NCBI GenBank assembly: GCA_000934665.2
Contig: JYFJ02004143.1
Span: 1-34,443, forward strand
Reading direction: 5' to 3'
DNA length: 34,443 nt
DNA from: Catajapyx aquilonaris
Taxonomy: Eukaryota
Each line of letters opens with the position of its first letter. Position 1 is the stretch's first letter. The position numbers and the translations under genes are program-made. Below the pieces are notes generated by a model. It saw only the letters and a program-made list of their open reading frames with translations. It was not told where the DNA came from and ran no database searches. Positions 12,565-32,128 of the stretch are shown one piece after another.

Positions 12565-13841
12565 ATGCCGCTGCCAGCTGCGTTGGCTGCCCGTCTGGCC
12601 AAGAGGGGGCTCCTCAGATCACAAGGGGAAGGTGGTAAATGACATGTGAAAGATGCACTTTGATGAGAACTGGAGAAAAGTAATGTGAGTGAATAGCACT
12701 GGAGCTAAAATTGCCATTTTTCTCTGCTCATTTCCTCAGCACCGGTGGAAGAGGTGATAGCAGAGGACTACGATGACGATGGACCGAAGACCACCGCGGT
12801 TGTCCACCAGCCGCCTCCACCGCCGCCGCCGTCTTTGGCCTACCCACAACTGTCATCCATTGTTGCACCGAAGGAGCCGGATGAGGACATGGAGACCAGG
12901 TTCCATGGCGTGATGGGATGCCCCAATAAGTGGAATGTATACCACGATTGCAGCTCCTACTGCAGAGAGAGATGGGGGAAGATCAGGTCCCTCGGAGGTG
13001 ATCATATGTACGAAAAGAAGAGGATGAAGATGCAAAAGAATTATCCGATGCCTGACAACTGGAAGGATGTGTTTGATCCGGGAACGTGAGTTGCACGGCG
13101 TAGTAATTGCTGAACGTACCTTACAAGTTGTGTTGCATTGCAGCGGTCGTTACTATTATTGGAACATGGACGATGACCTGGTGTCATGGCTGCCTCCTAG
13201 CCACCCTAAGGCAATTATATCAGAGTGTGCAGCCAAACTGAGGGAGGCCCTCCACATGAAGAGGGCTGAGGACCCTCACCTTATGGAAGACAAAGCAATG
13301 CCTCCGCCTCCTATGGAGACTGGAAGTGATGTGTGTACCTGCAGACACTGATTTGTACCATCTGACCAAATCATTTAAATTTTCATAATAATTTTCAGGA
13401 TAGCGACGAGGAGGACTTGAGACGTAAGCGAAGGTCATCCCCTCCCAGGCGGCCTCCACCTCCAAGACAAGACTATTCAAAGAGAGAGCGAGAAAGAAAG
13501 GGTCGTCCAAAGGTCAAGGATAATGACATTGACCCAATGGATCCTGCTGCATATTCAGATGCCCCAAGGTACAACATTTGAATGTTGTTTGATAAAATAT
13601 TAGTCTTAGAATAGTACAGATGTCAGTGTTTTCATGCAAGTGTGTGTAGTCCATGTTGACACCATGCTTTATGATCATTTTTTGCAGGGGAACTTGGTCG
13701 TCTGGCCTTGGAAAGAAAAATGAAGCCAAGACCGGTGCAGATGTGACAGCCTCCGGCCCGCTGTACCAAATGCGCCCTTACCCAAGCCCAGGAGCAGTGC
13801 TAAGAGCGAATGCTGAAGCAGCCAAGAAAAAAGTCTTATAA
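12565..13841 (+). CDS. PQBP1: Polyglutamine-binding protein 1 (WW domain splicing factor), 5 exons, about 308 aa
   Basis: Exons 12565-12634, 12740-13085, 13144-13330, 13399-13568, 13688-13841 (927 nt). [15 protein letters not shown] start, [11 protein letters not shown] domain ([22 protein letters not shown]), [20 protein letters not shown] and C-terminal YPSPGAVL (YxxPxxVL). Confidence 0.95.
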
Positions 13842-14250: not shown

Positions 14251-17200
14251 ATGTCTAAGAAGCCCAGCTTGTCTGAAAAGCTGGCCGAATTGGCCAGTAC
14301 AGCACCAGTATTTACCGCACCAGACGAAGATGATGTGCATCCAGGTACCACGTTCTATGCAATTCACCAAACATTGATTTACTTGGGCGTGTGTAATGAC
14401 CAAAAAATGCAACTGAGACCGCACTTGTAATTACATTTACAAATTGACTTTCAGAGACGAGGGCCAAGGTGGCTGATTGGGAAGAGGAGGGGGATTCGTT
14501 GGATGAGGCACAGTCTGCAGGTCGGAGCCAGCTTCGAGCAAGGGCGGAAGGCTTGCTGCAGGATGTGGACAAGCGCTACTCTGGAAAGTGCGTTTCCAGG
14601 AAGGAACTGCTTAAGCAGCAAGGGGAACTGATGAGCGACGAGGATGAGGACTCTGGACCAGAAGATGACCAGGAAATGGGAGGTGAAAGCGGCGATACCT
14701 CGGATGAGAGCCAAGCTGGGAGCGATGGGTGAGGAAACAAAATTGCTCAGGTCATACGAACTAAAGCCATGTTTACATGTGAGCGATTTGATGAGCGAGG
14801 ACACCACTGAGCGAAAGTAACAATTGTGGTAACAATATATTTTCGCCCCAAACAATTGGTCTCATTGCTGCGACATCGCTGATGGAATCTCTCACATGTA
14901 AATGCGGCTTAATAGAGTTCAACCTGCCTGTACAGTGTTGATCATGAATCGAGGCATGTTGCTAGCGACATTTTCAAAAGTGGCAGAAGAAGGAATCGAA
15001 GATAAGCATAAGCATACTACAGGCCGGGCGAGCAAGAGTCCTTCTTCTGCCGGTTCCGAAAATGTCGCTGGCAGTATGCCTCGATTTATCACCAACACTG
15101 TACCAGACTGACTTCCTATTATTAACTTGTAATGGTCAAAATTGCAATAATTAAGAGTGCATGTCTGGGGCTGATCTGTATTGCTATGATAGCACTGAAA
15201 AGAAAGTCAAGATGCATTGCGTCAATCTTTTATTTTCCAATGGTGATGCTGCCATTGCAACTGACTTGTAAGAAAGGATTCGCTGTTGGCAACCATATTT
15301 ATTTACACAAGCTGACAGTTTAATATTACAGGTAGCCCTTGTTTTACAACTGTGAGTCTTTGCTCTCATGTATGGCAGTCTCAACCGAAAAATCTTTACA
15401 GAAATACAATTGTTGCCTGTTAGCATGCTGTTACTTGAGATTTAAGAAAGGTTAGATCTTCTGGACATCATGAATGTTGAATCTGCATGCCTTGGCAGCA
15501 CTGGAATGTATCTGCCGTCTCTCTTAAAGAGAGGATCTTGTGCACTGGAAAACCTGGAGTTAACTCCTGACTGCTGCTCATTTGTGCCTCCGCAACCGCA
15601 TACAGAGAAAAACCCTCGCCACAAATTGGTTGAGGTCCGTTCCCTCAGTACATGGAATGCAAAGATCAGGAAACCTTGCAAAGTGTTGAACACACAGAAC
15701 AAATAGGTAAAGAGTATTCGGGCACCACCAATTGCAAAAGCACCAAAGAGCCATGTTAGCCCAAGAAGCACAAAAACACAGACAGCCATACGTAACTGGG
15801 TCACCGCAAGTCGGTATTGTTGCTGGTTGCATCGCAGGTTCGCTCTTTGGCAAAAGATGCCGTGAATTATCATTCCGAAAATTGCAGTGTTCACAGCCAA
15901 TATGGCAAAGAGTGGTATTAAAAATGCATAAAGGAAGGCATCAGGTGACATCCAACAGTATGACTGACCTGATGTGTATTGTGATGGGTCAGTAGCTAGC
16001 ACGGCTATCACAGGCACAAATGGGCAACCCCAGGCACTTAACCCAGCTTTCCACATGAAGCGTGGAATGTACGTACCAATAACTTTAACAAAGCGGAGGT
16101 ACTGATGTGTTGCTTCGACAAACATCCAACAAAATGTTGCAAGGATGAAGTAGTGTAAGGTTGCTGCAACTGTACCGCAGAGAATAGGGTTCCAAGTCTG
16201 GTGTATGCCAGCAAGAAAAATTACATACACAGAAAACAGAGCAAATGACAAGTTCACAATGATGCGGTTGCCCAAGGGTTTACGCCATCTAGGAAATAAC
16301 ATAAACGTAGTGAACACTAAGCACAGGCCAAGTATTGAAATGCTGCATCCAATTATAGTTATCAGGTCCAGTACAAAGCGATGTGATGGATCAATTGCAG
16401 ATTCACCATCTTCACCGTAATAGCTGATTAATTCGGCAAATGACGTCAGATGATTACACAAGCACACATCCTTTCCATCTTCATGACCAGCATACTGGCA
16501 ACCATCTTGTGACCATTCACCATTCCCACCGTTTGCTTCAAAGTCCCAGAATACACAAGTTGGATCTTCATCAACTGCTAGTCTCGGCTTGAACAGGATC
16601 TTGATCGCAGGGGTAACATCCCTAATAGCTCTGTCTCGTATGCTTGCTTGTACCACTGGTGCATTAACAACCATGCCACTACGATTACGGACAGTGTCAA
16701 ACAGAGTAGATTCGTTGTACACCACAAAAGAGATTCGAACAGTGCCTGCTGTTATGTTATCAACCAAGGTTTCAGGCAGGATTAAAGCAGCAGTTGTGTC
16801 AGGGTGTAAGTTAATGTTATCCCGATAGAGTGTGTTAATCCTGATCACCTCACCCTCAGGATTTGAGCTGAAGCCAATTACTTCTGGTTTTTCAAGATCC
16901 CACACTTCATATGACACATGTTCTCGCTCACTTTTGTAGCTATTCCCATTAACATTGCCATCTTCTGGTACAGTTCCTGACAATGTGATTGCTTCAGCTG
17001 CACTGACAATTCGATTGGACGTGTTTAGCAATTCTTGTGATGTAACTAGTTTGTCATAATTTACTCTGACCAAATTGCGAACCAAAGAAAATGAATCGTC
17101 CATGTTAACATGTGATATTTGTTTTCCATCAGACATTGCCTCCAGCAGTCTAGTGGCATAATGAACGTCGATTGGATTGAGCTTCCCTGGGTCAGAAGTT

Positions 17201-20200
17201 AATTCTTTTGCCAACTCAACATTACCAGCCGATAAACCAACAGTAATACTGCTTGGGTCACCATCACATTGTCCATCATATTCCCATCCTGCCCCATGGT
17301 TTAAACTACCTCTGCATTTAAACAGTACCGGCTTGCCATCTGAATTCAAGCATGGCTGCTCAGGCACAGAGTAACGATCAACTGGAGTTTCTTGGAGGGT
17401 TACAGTTTTAGGAGGAACCCCAGCTATTGTTAAAGGCCCTCCAGGACATGTGATGGTGCTACGAATAGATAAGACCTCCGTGCTTCCAACAGTGGAGTTG
17501 ACAAGTTCTGACAGGGTTGTCCATACCATGCGCTCATTTGGTGTGTTACTGACTGGATCATAATCTATCTCTAATCTCAAGGTTGCAAGGAGCCCATTTG
17601 CATCCGAAGCTAAATTGGTTACTGTCATGGTAACATTCGCTTGCATTAGAGGCATAAGGAAATCAGATACATGCACACTTAAATTGTGCCCGTATGAAGG
17701 GACGCCAAATGTGAAGTCATGCTTTTCAGGGCGGTATACGTCAGATCTGTCAAGTACATGCACTAAAAATGTGTATGTATTTTTCTTTACATACAACACT
17801 GGTGCTGACTTGATGTATGTTAGACTTGAAGCACTAAATGCATCGCACTGGTAGTACCCTTGTTCACTTACATGCAAATGATCCAGACATGTACCACTGC
17901 ATTTGTAGAATAAGAATCCATCGTGAAAACACCTAAACATGTGCATATCAGGTGAAACAGTAACTGTTAACTCCCTGTCATCTAGTACAGTATGTATGTA
18001 TGACATGTAAGAAGGACGCTCTCTTTCACATATAACATTTGAAACAATGTCATCATTAAGTGAGACGAGTCCCATACGTGATATTCCATATTGTTTTGAC
18101 AAATCGAGTGAGGGATCCCATGCCATAGTTTCCGGTAGCAACAAGTCTCCTTGCATGTCATACATGGTTCCATTGTGATTAATAAGGTTGAGCCATGTTG
18201 TGGTGTTGAAATAACCTGAACTGCGAACGTGCAATGGGCTGGAATCATGTTTCCTGCATACATCATTAGCTTCCTTCCAAGTGACATTCTTGAATTCTTT
18301 GTAACACTTATTGTGTCGTGGAACAAGTGAATTTGAAGACCATCCTGGCTGACAGTCATAGGTCTCATTATTTGCATCGTTTACTTCCAGTACGCATGCA
18401 TAGTTGTACTTACTGTTACAGTCTGCTGCAAACAGTGTCCTATTGGGATTCATTGCAAGGCAATCATAATTTCTCTTAGGTTCGCCACTTTCCCAACTGG
18501 CATTAAACATGTCTGTTAGTGGATAATCTCCTGTGTTAATGTCAGTGTAAGTGATGCCAATGTACGTCAGTGGGCCTCCAGAAACTATGCGCTGGTATGG
18601 GAGCCAAACTGATGCATTTTTAAATGTCAAATCCATATCGAAAGGTGACACTTCCAGTCCAGAACTTACGCATGACTGGAATGCACCACTCCACGTGTCA
18701 GCAGTTATCACTTTTGCACAGGTGTTATTGTTATATTGCTGGTATCCATATGGGCATGCATGATGGAGATAGGCACGTCTATAAGTACATTCATGCGGAT
18801 CAAATTTACTCCACTTTGCAGATGGAAACCCCCACTTGCACTGCCTTGCTAAAACTTGATGTTTGTCAGTAACACACAAGGCATCACTAGGTACGACAGT
18901 CATACCATCTTCTGCTATAGGCCACTCGTATTCACCAGTTTCATTGCTGCACACAGTCAGGAAGTAGAATGCAGACGTATTCAAGTACTTGAGTGTTCCA
19001 AACACGTAATCAGACATGAAGCCAGACCAGACCCACTCCAAGAGTTGATTTTTGCAATCATTCACAGTCAAGTTAACATGCAGGTAGTACCAGTGGTTAA
19101 CAATAACACCCTGAGAGAATTCCCTGTAGTCTGAGTGACTAAAATCCCATTCCCCTGCTGTGGTTAGATTAATTCCCTTCCTCCGCATCTGACGGGTCAC
19201 TTTCTTTGGTACAATAGATGAAATGTCATTGTTTGTCAACACATGACTGGTCATTACAACTGCATTTAATATATTCTCCAACTCGACTAGTACTGCATTT
19301 GACCTAACTCTCTCAAGGCGGCCTGGAAACCATCCCTCACACCAATACCGCCCCTGGCGACTGTACAGTGTACCTGGTGTAGACATGCGGCGAGTAATAT
19401 CATTGTACGTTGTCGGCTGCAACACTGGTGCATGTTGTTGCATGTATACTCCATCCTTGACCCAACTGACCTGCCCTGGACCTGACAATTCACACCTCAA
19501 AGTTAAGTTGTGAAATTCAGACATGTCAAGTACAAGATGATCATCTGCAGGGGTCATTTGAGCTTGTGCATTTTCATAGGTCCTTGTGATTTTGATGTCC
19601 TCTGGCTGATACAAACATGCAAAAGGAAGCACCATGTTACACTCCTCGGTGTGAAGCAGTGGTGGTGACAATTCAAATTTAGGCGACATGAGCTTGACAC
19701 AGTCGCCACCATTCTTCAGGTTGGGTTCCTTTGGGTGCCAACTCCAGAGGTTTTCTCTCTTGTATTCTGCAATATACATTATTACAATGAAAAATTGATG
19801 GCCACTTACGATCAAAGAAGCATTAAAATGGTGTAGGTCACAGTAAAACAATCTGTATTGCAACCTGGACTCAGTTGAAACATGACCTGATTTACATTTA
19901 CATTGCATAATAGCACTTCTATGATGATGTATCAAAATTTATATATTTTTAAAAGCAAGATACAATATCTTAAGTGACATGATTTTGTCATTGTACGTTG
20001 GCAATCACATTTTTTAAACAATTGATTTGTTATAGAATTTTTTTCTCATACCTGCATTCCGTCCAACCCACTGGAAGAATCCATTGAGTTTCTTCATGGC
20101 AACCCACATGCAATCAGGATGCATGTTGGCGATTAAGTCATCCAGCACAGACTACAGAAAAATATGCATTAGTCATTCAGTCACATGCTGCAATTTATTC

Positions 20201-22180
20201 ATGTGTGATAACATGCACTTGCTTAATAATTATTATCAGAGAGTTGCAAGAGGGATTTAAGTTATCCCTAAGTATGGAGGTGGCTAAGTACCGTACCTTC
20301 TGTGTTAGGCCTGCATGCTTGTTATTGAAATTCTCAGGAAATAATATTCCTAAGTGCTACCCTTTAATTCGTCTTACTGACTACTCACTTGAGGTGCCGA
20401 CTCATCCAACAAGTATCCACCGTCCTTGCTGCACAAATTTGCAGCGTCTTTCCAGGTCACTTCAGTGGCATTGTAGTGATAAAATATCCCATTGCTATAC
20501 TTCATATGTGGTGGCACTGACACTTTTTGTGCACTGATGGTGACACAGATCACTAACAAGGCAAGGTATGCAGGTGCCATTATTGTGACTCACAAAGTTT
20601 AGGTGTCACCAAGTAATGTTGGCGTCCAAGAGTTGAGTGGTGTAGGACCATACAAAGAGAGCCTGCTTGGCTATCTTTTCCCAATCCAAACCTGCGCTAT
20701 AAGTGACCTCCGGGGATTCATAATCACCAGAAGTGCTTCCAGGAAGGCCAGGAAGTCACTTCCTGCCTTGTGGCTTTCTTACGTCTTAATAAAGATGTTG
20801 TTCAGATTGCTGCAGAGAAACTTATCTGCGTGGTTTTGTGTTCCGGCACTAATAAGCGTTGATCCTTTCAGGGAAGATGACATCAAAAGTGACGGAGAGA
20901 ATGAGAGTGCAGAAGAGGTTGAAGGCCATGAGGGAAGCGACAACAGTGAACAGGAAGAGGAGGGTGATGACACAGTACAGGTCATCACCGCCACAGATAT
21001 CTCAGCAGAAATTGAGAAGGGCAAGGCAACAAAATGCCAGCTAGGTAAGCTATTTTTATTCAAGTTGCTGCAAAAGGGTACTCACATCACAATGATAACA
21101 ATAACTTCCGACAATGTCAACAATGTAACTGATAATGAAAAGCTGATGACATCAATCCAAGCGTAACGTTGCAAACTTAGGCAAAATGCAAGATAAATTG
21201 GTCCGAGTCGTTAATTTTCTTCTCCAGGTGTGTGGGACAATCTTCTGGAGATGAGAATCAGTCTACAAAAAGTGCTGTCAGCGGCCAACCGTCTTCCTCA
21301 GCATGACACATTCCCAGCATTCCAAAAACAAGTTGGAGGTGAGTTCCAGTCAGCTGTCCAGAGTGGCCAGAGCTCTGTGAAGAACCTCCTGGATAAATTC
21401 CTGGAGTTGCAGCACCAGCTTCTAAGGCAGTATCCTGAGACAAAGAACCTGGGAACCAATGAAGCTAAAGAAGAATCTGAGTCTGATGAGGAGATTCCAA
21501 GTGACTCAGACGAGGAAGCTGAGAAAGAAATAAAGGATACTGATGCAGATAATGAGGCAGTGTCACCAAAGAAAATGATGAAATTAGAGGAGTATGAGTC
21601 ACATGTTGCCCAGGTCCACTCAGACCTAGCCCAATTCCGTGATTCCACCATACAAAAGTGGAATGACAAGACACGCGTTGCCTATGGGAAGACAAGTAGC
21701 AAAAATTTCAGTGCATTTGAGCAGTCAACACTTAAGCAAATATCACAGCTGCTTAGTGACAAGGAGAGGCTGATACGTCGGACACAACTGAAGCGTTCCG
21801 TTTACCGCGCTTTAGGACGGAAGGAGGCACCACCTGAAGGCGGCTCAGCAGCAAACGCCAGTGAATATGATCCTGAAGTGTTTGATGATGATGACTTTTA
21901 CCACCAACTATTGCGTGAACTCATAGAACGTGATGCCTCAGGTGAGTCTGATCCCACACAGCTAGGACGTAAGTTGCTGGAGCTTCAGAAGTTGCGCAGC
22001 AAATTACGGCGCAAGGTGGACACCAAAGCCAGCAAGGGAAGGAAAATACGCTATGACATCCACAACAAGCTTGTCAACTTCATGGCGCCTGTGACTGAAC
22101 GTGGCATGGCAGAGGCTGCAAAGAGTGAACTTTTCAACTCCTTGTTTGGCCAAGTAACAACTCAGAGCAATGACAAATGA
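14251..22180 (+). CDS. AATF: AATF / Che-1 / Bfr2 homolog, 4 exons, 497 aa
   Basis: Exons 14251-14344, 14455-14728, 20872-21044, 21228-22180 (1494 nt, phases 1/2/1 consistent). Motifs DKRYSGKCVSRK, EIEKGKA..QLGVWDNLLEMRISLQK, FDDDDFYHQLLRELIE and VDTKASKGRKIRY..KLVNFMAP. Confidence 0.93.
14933..15100. mobile_element. 168-bp palindromic Tc1/mariner-type MITE in AATF intron 2
   Basis: 62-bp inverted arms starting CAGTGTTG and ending GGCAGAAGAAGGA (52/62 identical by hand count). Flanked by TA at 14931-14932 and 15101-15102. Confidence 0.85.
15442..20580 (-). CDS. Adhesion GPCR with C-type lectin, Ig-like, HRM-like, GAIN/GPS and 7TM domains, 3 exons, 1538 aa; nested in AATF intron 2
   Basis: Exons 20580-20389 (signal peptide MAPAYLALLVICVTISA), 20151-20052 and 19766-15442 (4617 nt in frame). 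GPS motif CVFWD..GEWSQDGC..CLCNHL/TSFAEL, followed by a class B2-type 7TM (LHYFILATFCWMFVEA, WGCP, YCW, LLGLTW, NTLQGFLIF). The first 56 residues of the 1497-aa ORF call are intronic. Confidence 0.92.
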
Positions 22181-24592: not shown

Positions 24593-27500
24593 TCATTTTG
24601 ATTTCGGTTCGAGCATGTCTTCAGGCCGCACCCACTTCTTGAATTGCTCTTCGGTGAGATGGCCCAGATCCAAGGCGGACTTCAGAAGGGTGGTTCCCTC
24701 CTTGTGAGCCTTCTTGGCAATCGCTGCGGCCTTGTCATAGCCAATGTGAGGATTAAGGGCAGTGACCAGCATGAGGGACTCGTTCATTAGCTTGTTGATT
24801 CTCGTCTCGTCAGCCTCGATTCCAGACACACACTTGTCTGTGAAGGCCCCACAGCTGTCACCCAGGAGGCGGATGGAGCGGAGGACGTTAGCCACTATCA
24901 TGGGCTTGAAGACATTCAGCTCAAAGTGTCCGTTGGATCCACCCACTGTCACAGCAACATTGTTGCCCATAACCTGGAATAAGTTTATAATAAATTGTTT
25001 TAATCCAAAACTGAGCTGTTTGGATTTTCACCACGCATTCAGTGACATCCCTAATTTGGGAGAAATTATTCAATGCACAGTAAATGCCAAACCTGGGCTG
25101 CGACCATGGTGATAGCCTCACACTGAGTTGGGTTGACCTTTCCAGGCATGATGCTGCTTCCTGGTTCATTCTCAGGAAGCTGCAGCTCTCCTAGTCCACA
25201 CCTGGGCCCAGATCCTAGGAACCGAATGTCGTTGGCCACCTTCATGATGCTGCAGGCGACGGTGTTAAGTGCCCCGCTCACCTCAACCAACGCATCATGG
25301 GCAGCTAATGCTTCAAACTTGTTTGGCGCAGTCACAAACGGTAGTCCAGTCAGCTCAGCAACCTTCTTAGCCACCTTCTCGTCAAAGCCCTTGAATGTGT
25401 TGAGACCAGTGCCAACAGCCGTTCCACCCGCAGCCAGCATGTAAGCCCTAGGAAGTGTGTCTTTAACACGAGCAATTGCAAACTCCAATTGCTGTGCATA
25501 TCCGCTGAACTCTTGCCCCAACGTCAGTGGGGTTGCATCCATTGTGTGCGTACGTCCAATCTTTATTATTCCAGCGAACTTCTTGGCTTTTGCGTCTATG
25601 GCAGCACGCAGCTTTTCAAGCTGTGGCAACAAGGTTTGGTTCAGCTCCATAGCAACAGCAATGTGCATGGCTGTCGGGAAGGTATCATTGGAGCTCTGCC
25701 CCTTGTTGACATGGTCGTTGGGATGGACTGGTTCCTTGCTACCAAGCTTACCACCCATAATCTCAATGGCACGGTTGCTGATCACCTCATTTGTGTTCAT
25801 ATTGCTCTGGGTGCCTGATCCAGTCTGCCAAATGACCAGGGGAAAGTGTCCCTCGTCATACAGCTTCCCTGATATGACCTCATCAGCTGCTTTTGAGATG
25901 GCCTCGGCAACCTGGAAAGAAGGAAGAATATGTGATGACAATTTAGTAAAAACCTGGTTGTTACTGGAAGGAAAAATGTTATAGGACAAACAGCATGAGA
26001 GAAGTCTGTGCCACTATTAATTCGGAAAAGTTACAACTTACAACACATAACTGATTTTAAATACTGCATTAGTAATTACAAAATAATATAAATTATTGCA
26101 TTGTGAGCAGATAAGTCACTTATGTAATTATATAATTGACTTATTTGCTCACAATGCAATAATTACATTATACTATCAGGAAACAATCAATGATGCTGAT
26201 AATATCAATGTGATTAGCTTTAATTCAAGAGACCCCTTCACGGAAGTTACCACACAACCTACAGTATTGCTTCATGGTGCTGATATTTGGGACATTATTC
26301 AAGGTCTGTGGGCAAGGCATGTTCATGTTTCAGGCAGCAAGTGTGAAGTCGCATGCAACGGATGCTTCACAAGGACTCCTGAGTAATTAATGCTCCACTG
26401 AAAATGTGGCGAAATACTCTTAAAAATAGTTTCAATTACAAATTTCATACTTTTTCCCTTTCCTTGTGGTGAAATGAAAAACAAATCTTTTCCTGCTTCA
26501 AAAAAACCAATGCACATGCCACTTTCTGTAAGTCTTTTTGACGGGAAAGTAGTCAAACTGTCCCCATACCATGCCGCTTTTGCTGTAAGATTAACCCATG
26601 GTGTAAATCTGAGAGAATAATCACCGTAAATCTTGAAAGCATGAATAAATTTTTAAATGAAATTAGCACCTTATTTTCAAAACTCCCAAGTTTAATCACT
26701 TGAACCATGATATCTTGCTTAAGTAGGCACGATACCATTTCAGAACGCCAAACGCGCCCTTAGTTAGATAATCTAAAGTAGTTTCCATGACCTACAGATA
26801 TGCAATCCTGCCCTTCAAAATCCACATAACCTTTATTACTACTGTCTAATCTGGGATCATCCTAATAGGCATTTCAAACAGAAGATTCAACTATTAACAA
26901 CTTATTAACTGTATTTCTGGTTTATTAACTGTATTTCACATCCCCAAATCCTTGAGATGCCACATTACGTCACCTATTGGTCCTATGCTATTTTCGGACG
27001 TAAGTGGTTTGGCTGAAGTGGTGTGATACCACAACCACCATGCATGAATTTCTCTCCCTCCGTCTTTTATTTTATTTTTATTTTTTTCAACAATTTATTT
27101 AGTGGACCCGGGGGGGGGGGGGGGGGGGGNCGCAAGTGCAATGTTGTTGCTTGGTCATTTTGTAAACTCCCCCGGGTGGATTCGTCTAGCAGAGATTCCA
27201 CCCGAGACGAAGCCAGAGATGACCCCTAACTCTGCACGAGATGAAGGAGGGCATTGGCCAATCTTAATTATCAGCATTAATAGAAAATTGGTTCTTGTGC
27301 ATGAAGCAAATGCACTTTTTTTCATGCCAATCAGCAGCAATAATGGCAGATTTTACATTAATATGCGCTCATACCCAATGCTTCACATGTTCACTAAAAT
27401 TCCAATTATACATGTGTGCACACGTTTGGCTGCCCATTGCAATACCCTACAGGAAGGAATCTCACACTGTAAAACCTGGTAAAACCAGTAGCATACACCC

Positions 27501-30880: not shown

Positions 30881-32128
30881 ATGTACTCCTCATCTGAAGA
30901 TTTGATTTCGGAGACTAAATTTTTTTCAAAGCAAAAGCTGCTGAAACAGGGTGACGCACCAGTGACTCCTTTTTTCGCATTGGTCGTATTCATTGAATTT
31001 TGTGTCATTGTTCTGGTTGCTGTGCTGGCCTACTATCTCAGGTAAGAATACAGTCATGGAAATGATCAACAGGCAATATTAATAACTCACATTTTCAGAT
31101 TCACAGATGCATTCCAAGTCTATCATGGGAATATCAAAAATTGCTCCAACACTCAACATGAGCCATTTCGGGAACCACCGTACCTGTACAAACTAAGAAA
31201 CCAGGTTTTCTACAGTGTCCTGATTGTGGTTCCAGTTGGCTTGGTGAGTTAAGTGGAGAGTTCTTATGAGTCAGTCGTAACACACTTGCCCGTTTCAGAT
31301 TTTGAGTGGCGAAGTACTCAGAATTATTGTGGCAGACAAAGTGGAGAAGACACTACTTCTTGGAAGTCTGCGCTTTCCAGTTTGGCTCCGACGCCTGGTG
31401 CGATTTATAGGTAAGACTTCTTAGTTTTAATAATCACAAGTCGTGCACTTATGATTGTCATTTTGGTGCAGTACATACCAATGCAACTATGAGCCACACA
31501 ATTATTGCCTAGTTCAGAAAAAAGTCCAACCCTATTGCAATTCTAACTTAAATGTAGGATGTATCTTTCATTGGAAATTACTTTTTCATCAGGCATTTTC
31601 ATCCTGGGTCTTCTGTTGACATCTCTGCTGACTGATACTCTGAAGTGCTTGACTGGCCGACCCCGCCCAAACTTTTGCCAGGATGACTTGAATGCTGACC
31701 CGAAAAGGAGGGACATAACTTCTTTTCCATCCTTCCACTCTTCCATGTCGACCTTCTCTGCTACCTTTGCCTGCCTTTACGTGCATTTCCGATTCTCTGT
31801 GAGTGGCGTGTACACTCTGAGGCCAATCCTAATGGCTGCACTTACCTGTGCTGCTTTCCTTGTCTGCTGGCAACGGCTGCATAGCGGACTCCATCGGTGG
31901 GATGATGTTCTGGCTGGTTCGATACTGGGACTGTCTATTGGACTGTACCAAGGAATCTGTATGTCTGGAAAGTTTCAGGAGTCAACTCCAGGGCAGGAAG
32001 TTATCCAGCAGCAGCTGCCGATTGCCATACCAAGAATCAAGTGTCGCAACCCATTGGCACAGGCTGTTAATGATAATGTATCTCTTGTGGACTCTCAGTT
32101 CAGCCTACCATACTATTCAGCCTACTAA
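30881..32128 (+). CDS. PAP2-family phospholipid phosphatase(-related) membrane protein, 4 exons, 317 aa
   Basis: Exons 30881-31041, 31099-31243, 31299-31410, 31593-32128 (954 nt). Six hydrophobic segments. Motifs RRLVRFIG, C1 KCLTGRPRP, C2 SFPSFH and C3 QRLHSGLHRWDDV. Confidence 0.85.

Follow-up and report, generated by a model that had tools for sequence, protein, structure and literature searches.

Conserved pairs of host and nested genes exist among vertebrates and among invertebrates. AATF (Che-1/Traube/Bfr2 family) is a nucleolar ribosome-biogenesis factor and the product of an essential gene. In a Drosophila survey of nested genes, nearly 10% of genes are nested, with ~71% on opposite strands and most in the longest intron of the host; its typical hosts are large and rich in long introns, while the guests are small young duplicates (PMC5174743). 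Here we describe a locus of Catajapyx aquilonaris in which, judged from the DNA sequence, a complete and intact adhesion G-protein-coupled receptor (GPCR) very probably lies antisense in intron 2 of AATF, the two forming a genuine host/nested gene pair. The initial annotation of this DNA knew of no described nesting of an adhesion GPCR in AATF, and a search of the openly accessible literature likewise found none.

Results

The window, the whole stretch of 34,443 nucleotides analyzed here, contains AATF as four exons on the + strand. Exon 1 (14251-14344) begins with an ATG at 14251 and supplies 31 codons and one further base in an open splice model, with its N-terminus aligned to those of 14 orthologues. 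Exon 2 (14455-14728) encodes DKRYSGK.VSRK and the rest of the conserved N-terminal motif that surrounds it; its last codon is cut after two bases at the donor GTGAGG. Exon 3 (20872-21044), placed by sequence, splice model and orthologue alignment, encodes an acidic stretch followed by the start of the AATF-Che1 region, and exon 4 (21228-22180) encodes the AATF-Che1 and TRAUB domains recognized by Pfam and ends with the stop codon. Read from the sequence, the spliced coding sequence (CDS) is 1494 nt long, open throughout and translates to 497 amino acids. All three introns (110, 6143 and 183 bp) are of the GT-AG type. Intron 2 (14729-20871, + strand), the host intron, is bordered by TGG/GTGAGG at 14728 and CCTTTCAG/GGA at 20872, and the phase across it matches, as a Gly codon is split with two bases in exon 2 and its third base at the start of exon 3. 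The end of exon 2, the start of exon 3, the matching phase and the intron length proposed in the initial annotation were reproduced at every coordinate, as was its observation that intron 2 is the only large intron of the gene.

The identity of the host was established from domains and alignments. Pfam detected PF13339 (AATF-Che1, 7.7e-28) and PF08164 (TRAUB, 1e-25) in the expected order in addition to the conserved N-terminal block, and the protein aligned end to end with the 14 orthologues, with conserved blocks on either side of intron 2. Identity was 51-53% to insects and 49-53% over insect, brachiopod and vertebrate sequences, with the best relative at 53%. The window protein thus shares both Pfam domains, the N-terminal motif and full-length collinearity with AATF/Che-1/Traube/yeast Bfr2 and is unremarkable among them; the gene stands out only by its four exons and single long intron.

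Could the two halves of AATF have been brought together, or driven apart, by a chimeric contig or a rearrangement that disrupted the gene, so that exons 1-2 and 3-4 are not joined in vivo? We regard this as extremely improbable. The phases match and canonical splice signals are present on both sides, the two halves are exactly complementary with neither overlap nor gap in the alignment, and the window holds no second N- or C-terminal piece of AATF. When AATF orthologues were searched against the window by tblastn, matches were found only at exon 2 (14457-14705, matched by 4 of the 6 orthologues) and at exons 3-4 (20816-22165), with the high-scoring segment pairs (HSPs) of P0004 and P0135 extending to 20816/20888 on the exon 3 side. 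The region is also free of N, the sole N of the window being at 27130, and no repeat marks the intron borders.

The - strand of the intron contains a frame from stop to stop at 19938-15442 with 1498 codons, a length in DNA of 42% GC that cannot be attributed to chance. Addition of two short 5' exons gives a receptor of 1538 amino acids from an ATG at 20580, with introns of 237 and 285 bp that are both GT-AG. Exon 1 (20389-20580) contains the ATG, the signal peptide and the first third of C-type lectin domain 1, aligned with the Lectin_C region of the decapod protein P0123; exon 2 (20052-20151) encodes the middle part of the same domain; and exon 3 (15442-19766, 4325 nt) encodes the remaining ectodomain, the GAIN domain with its GPS motif, the seven-helix region (7TM) and the tail, with the stop codon at 15444-15442. 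An in-frame stop is located three codons upstream of the ATG, with no AG between the two. All seven decapod receptors compared aligned with the model in a single collinear HSP that begins at model residues 22-43, ends at residue 1486 and runs across both exon junctions. The span of the receptor CDS (15442-20580, 5139 bp) is wholly within 14729-20871 and takes up 84% of the intron, in accord with the initial annotation, which had an intact 1538-residue receptor filling most of the intron in antisense. Both gene models stand because splice signals, phase, open frames and homology agree.

Without the guest, intron 2 would amount to about 1 kb. Two foldback (MITE-like) inverted repeats (14764-15103) lie in the spacer that separates the donor of AATF exon 2 from the 3' end of the receptor, one with 35-nt arms that are 80% complementary and the other with 68-nt arms that are 84% complementary; no further copy of either element was found in the window. 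Two AATAAA motifs (15229-15303, - strand), 138 and 207 nt past the receptor stop codon and inside the intron, are candidate poly(A) signals. At the other end, 291 bp (20581-20871) separate the receptor ATG from AATF exon 3, a spacer that presumably also holds the AATF branch site together with the acceptor. For the transcription unit to be nested in full, the receptor 5'UTR and promoter must lie within these 291 bp; the receptor may also have non-coding exons farther upstream, past AATF exon 3. Rfam and tRNA scans of the intron returned nothing, so no snoRNA host function is seen. Target-site duplications, a poly(A) tail or transposon ends flanking the receptor were searched for and not found, the only repeat pairs being of chance size (14-21 nt). 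A processed retrocopy as the source of the receptor was rejected, given the two retained introns and the absence of a poly(A) tract downstream.

By its predicted 7tm_2 core, GPS motif, GAIN fold and adhesion-type ectodomain modules, the guest is classed as an adhesion GPCR (class B2). The seven-helix core (15664-16371, - strand) matches Pfam PF00002 at 2.1e-37 over 247 of 250 profile positions, and the hydrophobic segments found from residue 1232 to residue 1471 fit the 7TM; a further hydrophobic segment at residues 4-22 corresponds to the signal peptide. The GPS motif (16435-16563; Pfam 9.8e-15) is enclosed by the GAIN domain (16417-17310, - strand; full-length residues about 917-1214), and its HL/T site (L1204/T1205) lies directly before TM1. 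Across 24 family members the H, T and F of this site are invariant and the L nearly so. In a PDB sequence search, which gave 38 matches, solved adhesion GPCRs ranked on top, led by ADGRG6 (4.8e-60) and ADGRG2 (1.2e-56) with ADGRL3 close behind. By these PDB sequence matches, the 7TM would be closest to the ADGRG/ADGRL types. A Protein Atlas search gave a top score of 0.78 to a 7tm_2/GPS cluster with arthropod members, which is below the counting level and serves as a lead only.

Fold comparisons were made with an AF2 model of medium confidence (pLDDT 73). In this model, the GAIN domain was recovered by Foldseek (E 1e-14) and was aligned by VIA-align with BAI3 (4dlo_A; Z 23.0, rmsd 6.1, 276 residues), GPR110 (8hc0_A; Z 22.2, rmsd 3.1, 241 residues) and latrophilin (4dlq_A; Z 20.5, rmsd 3.4, 247 residues). 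Two tandem C-type lectin folds (18013-18768, - strand; residues 431-562 and 566-682) were identified by the same route, one matching 6py1 over 113 residues (Z 13.1, rmsd 2.7) and the other 3bdw_C over 110 residues (Z 12.8, rmsd 2.5). For the large exon, Pfam gave no Lectin_C match even with the cutoff relaxed to E 1, and an Ig_2 match of 0.15 was below threshold. The N-terminal module aligned with residues 73-170 of the decapod P0123, its Pfam Lectin_C region. The predicted layout is therefore a signal peptide, a C-type lectin domain, an Ig-like region, two C-type lectin folds, a GAIN domain with HL/T and a tethered-agonist sequence, and a class B 7TM. Vertebrate ADGRG6 (GPR126), ADGRG2, ADGRG4 and ADGRL3 match GAIN subdomain B and the 7TM of the receptor at E 4.8e-60 to 9.2e-51; vertebrate ADGRG/ADGRL receptors share the canonical cleavage motif with it and, on the modeled structure, the GAIN fold (Z 20-27). 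The ectodomains differ, as the window receptor carries C-type lectin and Ig-like modules, whereas the vertebrate proteins carry CUB/PTX/SEA or RBL/olfactomedin modules.

Collinear relatives of the receptor, at 27-33% identity, come from malacostracans (Decapoda, Stomatopoda and Amphipoda) and a scorpion: these lectin-type adhesion GPCRs, annotated as 'uncharacterized' or 'ADGRG4-like', include Cherax P0123, Homarus P0127 and P0253 ('ADGRG4-like'), Oratosquilla P0252 and Hyalella P0411, together with Centruroides P0270. They have the same order from the N-terminal Lectin_C to the 7TM, with invariant Cys/Trp positions and an HL/T GPS, although the window receptor is about 150-190 residues shorter than the malacostracan members. 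Among 20 receptor clusters looked up, nine were malacostracan, one was from a scorpion and ten had no name; none of the ten named clusters came from insects. A metagenome scan with the receptor gave 13 pattern matches, none of which was confirmed, and the openly accessible literature, as searched, yielded no description of a lectin-type arthropod adhesion GPCR family. By these sequence comparisons, the family is old in arthropods. The initial annotation had described the insertion as lineage-specific; as applied to the receptor itself, this did not hold up, since the collinear malacostracan and scorpion relatives rule out an invention of this lineage.

In a quick tree (LG+G4), the window receptor fell outside a malacostracan clade of 23 rows, its best relative being 33% identical, and its grouping with the scorpion may reflect long-branch attraction. 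Its terminal branch in this tree is long, at 1.51 changes per column, as might be expected of a silent or decaying duplicate that is intact only through youth and is not a working gene. Such a duplicate nonetheless has little chance of being the right reading: 1538 codons are open over three exons with intact GT-AG sites, the invariant Cys/Trp scaffold and the GPS residues of the family are kept, and 27-33% identity to all relatives represents a long divergence while the frame stayed open, which argues for constraint.

The age of the position within AATF is a separate matter from the age of the family. None of 80 metagenomic AATF loci (80 kept of 168 confirmed, taken with flanks of as much as 10 kb) had a receptor match, these loci being distant relatives with short best segments of 52-63% identity and no close relative among them, some of them perhaps cDNA-derived. 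In four (L001, L007, L010 and L047), one HSP ran straight over the position of intron 2 (codon 122/123), indicating no intron there. In Centruroides vittatus, AATF is on a contig of 1,396,528 bp and the receptor relative on a different one of 2,780,071 bp. The metagenomic loci and the scorpion contigs are hints in favor of a position derived in this lineage, which we consider somewhat the likelier history. If instead the receptor had resided in this AATF intron since early arthropods, its absence elsewhere would be due to loss or movement. Such an ancient pairing would suit the spread of the family from scorpion to malacostracans and the long isolated branch of the window receptor, for which no close paralogue was seen; the separate scorpion contigs and the receptor-free metagenomic loci, distant as these are, speak against it, and we judge it unlikely. 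With a derived position and an old receptor family, the nesting would most likely have arisen through relocation or duplication of an existing gene.

Discussion

On the account that we favor, transcription of AATF would have to pass through all of intron 2, whose 6143 bp would then be removed by splicing, and the receptor would be a separate three-exon gene on the opposite strand of that intron. The receptor is probably driven by a separate promoter, located within the 291 bp that precede its ATG or farther upstream, and is probably polyadenylated at one of the AATAAA motifs 138-207 nt past the stop codon, so that both ends would fit in the intron. From what is known of the family, it would most likely be a surface receptor that senses glycans or contact and signals through its tethered agonist. 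The arrangement most likely goes back to a DNA-level event in this lineage that placed an existing receptor gene, moved or copied, in a short intron of AATF. Transcriptional interference, raised as a possibility in the initial annotation for a supposedly ubiquitous AATF and a supposedly tissue-specific receptor, would, if present, be of the general type known from other nested genes.

A bolder version of this account can be drawn. A 5-kb receptor of three exons would have moved at the DNA level into an intron of <1 kb in a compact essential gene, the reverse of the pattern of small guests in large hosts, and convergent transcription would then keep some cells from expressing the receptor and AATF together, so that a surface glycan sensor would be coupled to the growth state. 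Taken as a whole, this chain of events appears very unlikely to us.

The locus is of use in several respects. As a clean example of a nested pair, it is relevant to annotation, where gene finders may report AATF as two genes or lose the antisense receptor. With a guest far larger than the host CDS and taking up practically the whole intron, it would be a good case, given related genomes, for studying how the small introns of essential genes come to house large genes. The receptor family, with several predicted C-type lectin domains per protein, offers candidate sensors of glycans or pathogen patterns. Neither the size of the guest nor the receptor family overturns current understanding.

Set beside known nested genes, the AATF/receptor pair is real but has an ordinary gene-within-gene layout. 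Its atypical point is the combination of a large guest with a small, compact host: compared with the Drosophila pairs, the host here is compact, with a CDS of 1.5 kb, the guest CDS is 3x that of the host, and the guest belongs to an old family.

AATF and the receptor nested in its second intron

AATF (a nucleolar ribosome-biogenesis factor of the Che-1/Traube/Bfr2 family) was read from the sequence on the forward strand as a splice model of four exons (14251–14344, 14455–14728, 20872–21044 and 21228–22180), with the Pfam domains AATF-Che1 (7.7e-28) and TRAUB (1e-25) located in exon 4. All three introns (110, 6143 and 183 bp) are of GT–AG type and the spliced frame comprises 497 open codons. 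The matching phase claimed in the initial annotation across the 6143-bp intron was confirmed, as exon 2 closes with two bases of a Gly codon that exon 3 completes with its initial base, and the frame stays open. Fourteen AATF proteins, among them sequences from insects, one brachiopod and one turtle, align with the spliced product from first to last residue. Conserved blocks are found in exon 1, at DKRYxGxxxSRK in exon 2 and spanning the exon 3/4 junction. When six orthologues were searched back against the window, matches were found solely at 14457–14705 and 20816–22165, with no further AATF piece elsewhere; both halves thus complement each other as parts of a single gene. The closest relatives with a taxon name are insects of Polyneoptera and Palaeoptera, at 51–53% identity over exon 4 (1518 hits), and the top identity among longer proteins is 51% (345 hits); nothing near Catajapyx aquilonaris was found in the databases searched with AATF. 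The window is eukaryotic DNA with a GC content of ~42%.

Intron 2 (14729–20871) contains, on the reverse strand, a receptor gene extending from 20580 to 15442. Its main frame runs for 1498 codons stop-to-stop (19938–15442) and is preceded in the spliced model by two short exons (20580–20389 and 20151–20052). The two introns (237 and 285 bp) are both GT–AG, and the complete 1538-aa protein begins with a hydrophobic signal-like segment. Reading of the sequence revealed an in-frame stop three codons 5′ of the ATG without an intervening AG, which places the translation start at 20580. The CDS span of 5139 bp occupies 84% of the intron, in agreement with the earlier description of an intron mostly filled by the receptor. 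All figures of that description (exon 2 end at 14728, exon 3 start at 20872, intron lengths and the 1538-aa receptor) were reproduced, and the antisense nesting is real at the gene-model level as judged by splice signals, open frames and homology.

Outside the receptor CDS span, just 713 and 291 bp of the intron are left, ~320 bp of which are two foldback repeats. These MITE-like inverted repeats (14764–14910 and 14930–15103) are located in the spacer that separates the exon 2 donor of AATF from the 3′ end of the receptor. Their arms measure 35 and 68 nt (80% and 84% complementary, respectively), and the window contains no additional copies. No Rfam family was detected in intron 2. GC3 differs modestly between AATF (0.50) and the receptor (0.41).

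Candidate poly(A) signals are present 138 and 207 nt past the receptor stop, with AATF exon 2 still ~500 bp away, and 291 bp separate the receptor ATG from AATF exon 3; a self-contained receptor transcription unit would thus fit within the intron. Alternatively, the receptor may have upstream non-coding exons beyond the intron. AATF transcription would have to cross the entire receptor gene in antisense orientation before splicing removes the 6.1-kb intron. The putative interference between the two genes proposed in the initial annotation is possible in principle.

Domain architecture of the receptor

Pfam assigned 7tm_2 (2.1e-37) and GPS (9.8e-15) to the receptor. The best sequence matches among solved structures were ADGRG6 (4.8e-60), ADGRG2 (1.2e-56) and ADGRL3 (9.2e-51), spanning GAIN subdomain B and the 7TM region. 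For the ectodomain, 1120 residues were modelled with AlphaFold2 from an alignment of 24 family sequences (mean pLDDT 73, pTM 0.52). The model contains a GAIN domain recovered by Foldseek (E 1e-14) and by VIA-align (Z 20–23 overall), the latter matching BAI3 (rmsd 6.1, 276 aligned), GPR110 (rmsd 3.1, 241 aligned) and latrophilin (rmsd 3.4, 247 aligned). For the ectodomain of ADGRG6, Z was 26.6, but with an rmsd of 18.2. Two tandem C-type lectin folds (Z 13.1 and 12.8) are also present in the model; within the large exon, Pfam called no Lectin_C even with the threshold relaxed to E 1. A third, N-terminal lectin domain is divided among three exons and aligns with the Pfam-called Lectin_C of decapod relatives. 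The cleavage site HL|T corresponds to L1204|T1205, and across the 24 aligned members H, T and F at the site are invariant and L nearly so; the same holds for ~40 positions with Cys, Trp or Gly distributed over the full ectodomain. The family is one of uncharacterised arthropod adhesion GPCRs with several C-type lectin domains, and is a matter for specialists.

Age of the receptor family and of its position

A word-indexed protein search with the receptor returned nine proteins, and all seven with names are decapod 'uncharacterized' proteins (1690–1723 aa, Lectin_C + GPS + 7tm_2, 30–32% identity, 91–96% coverage). Each of the seven aligned with the spliced receptor in a single collinear HSP, from residues 22–43 to 1486. 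With the ectodomain as query, an exhaustive HMMER search yielded 968 proteins at E ≤ 1e-3, of which 20 reached E ≤ 1e-30; the full-length matches with the highest scores share 25–30% identity, so the receptor and its close relatives are absent from the searched library. Ten of the best 20 clusters carry a taxon name: nine are malacostracan (Oratosquilla, Homarus, Petrolisthes ×3, Scylla ×2, Hyalella and Penaeus vannamei), one is from the scorpion Centruroides and none is from an insect. In a quick 26-row LG+G4 tree, all named malacostracans fall in a 23-row clade (SH-aLRT 99). The receptor lies outside it, on a long branch beside the scorpion pair, for which the program flags possible long-branch attraction. 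With malacostracan and scorpion relatives and a placement outside the malacostracan clade, the family long predates the Catajapyx lineage; by these sequence relationships, the receptor is not an invention of that lineage. The malacostracans form two sub-clades, and two Homarus americanus paralogues of this lectin-type family (P0127 and P0253) share one 11.3-Mb contig and have LOC numbers close to each other, a pattern suggestive of an old duplication inside Decapoda.

The position inside AATF was compared separately. The receptor was found in none of 80 metagenomic AATF loci (up to 10 kb flank, 558,687 bases; tblastn E ≤ 1e-3). At four of these loci (L001, L007, L010 and L047), one HSP crosses residue 122/123, the intron 2 position, uninterrupted, so that the intron is absent there or the sequence is cDNA-derived. 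In Centruroides vittatus, the AATF-like protein and the receptor relative are encoded on separate contigs (1,396,528 and 2,780,071 bp, respectively), and the relative is therefore not within AATF. These comparisons, all with distant relatives, lend mild support to a derived position inside AATF. The initial annotation's reading is supported in part: its nesting stands at gene-model level, and the lineage-specific insertion it proposed is a putative one. No target-site duplication or transposon end was found flanking the receptor, and an origin as a processed retrocopy was rejected because two introns are retained. The L001 contig (11,884 bp) carries an intronless AATF relative at 2998–4443 (44% identity over residues 2–489); given the genomic size of this contig, AATF intron content varies widely among arthropod-like genomes.

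Neighbouring genes

Directly 5′ of AATF, open frames at 12709–13351 (+) are proline-rich in one stretch and include a segment that, by reading only, resembles a WW domain; Pfam gave no match to them at E 0.001. They are probably the 3′ end of a neighbouring gene, which would leave <1 kb for the AATF promoter. A fumarate hydratase gene on the reverse strand has at least three coding blocks (28153–27749, 26013–25066 and 25027–24593; Lyase_1 5.3e-103, FumaraseC_C 4e-26). Its ~1.7-kb intron contains the sole N of the window, at 27130 beside a G run, probably an assembly soft spot. An exon with a PAP2-type lipid phosphate phosphatase domain (PF01569, 1.4e-23) is located at 31547–32128 (+). The tRNA and Rfam scans detected tRNA-Pro(AGG) at 2307–2378 (−; Rfam 54.8 bits) and, 1.7 kb away, tRNA-Lys(CTT) at 4088–4164 (−).

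Comparison with known nested genes

No description of the AATF/receptor pairing was found in the literature on AATF with nested or host genes, in line with the initial annotation, which knew of none; a literature search for the lectin-type adhesion GPCR family in crustaceans likewise found nothing relevant. Among the figures given for Drosophila in PMC5174743, nearly 10% of genes are in nested structures, 71.3% of these structures are opposite-strand and the majority are in the longest intron of the host; according to PMC3786989, intronic genes make up ~6% in D. melanogaster. The AATF/receptor pair resembles the Drosophila nested genes in its strand arrangement, in the intron used and in the gene structure of the guest, but differs from the known kind in its compact host and in a guest coding length three times that of the host.
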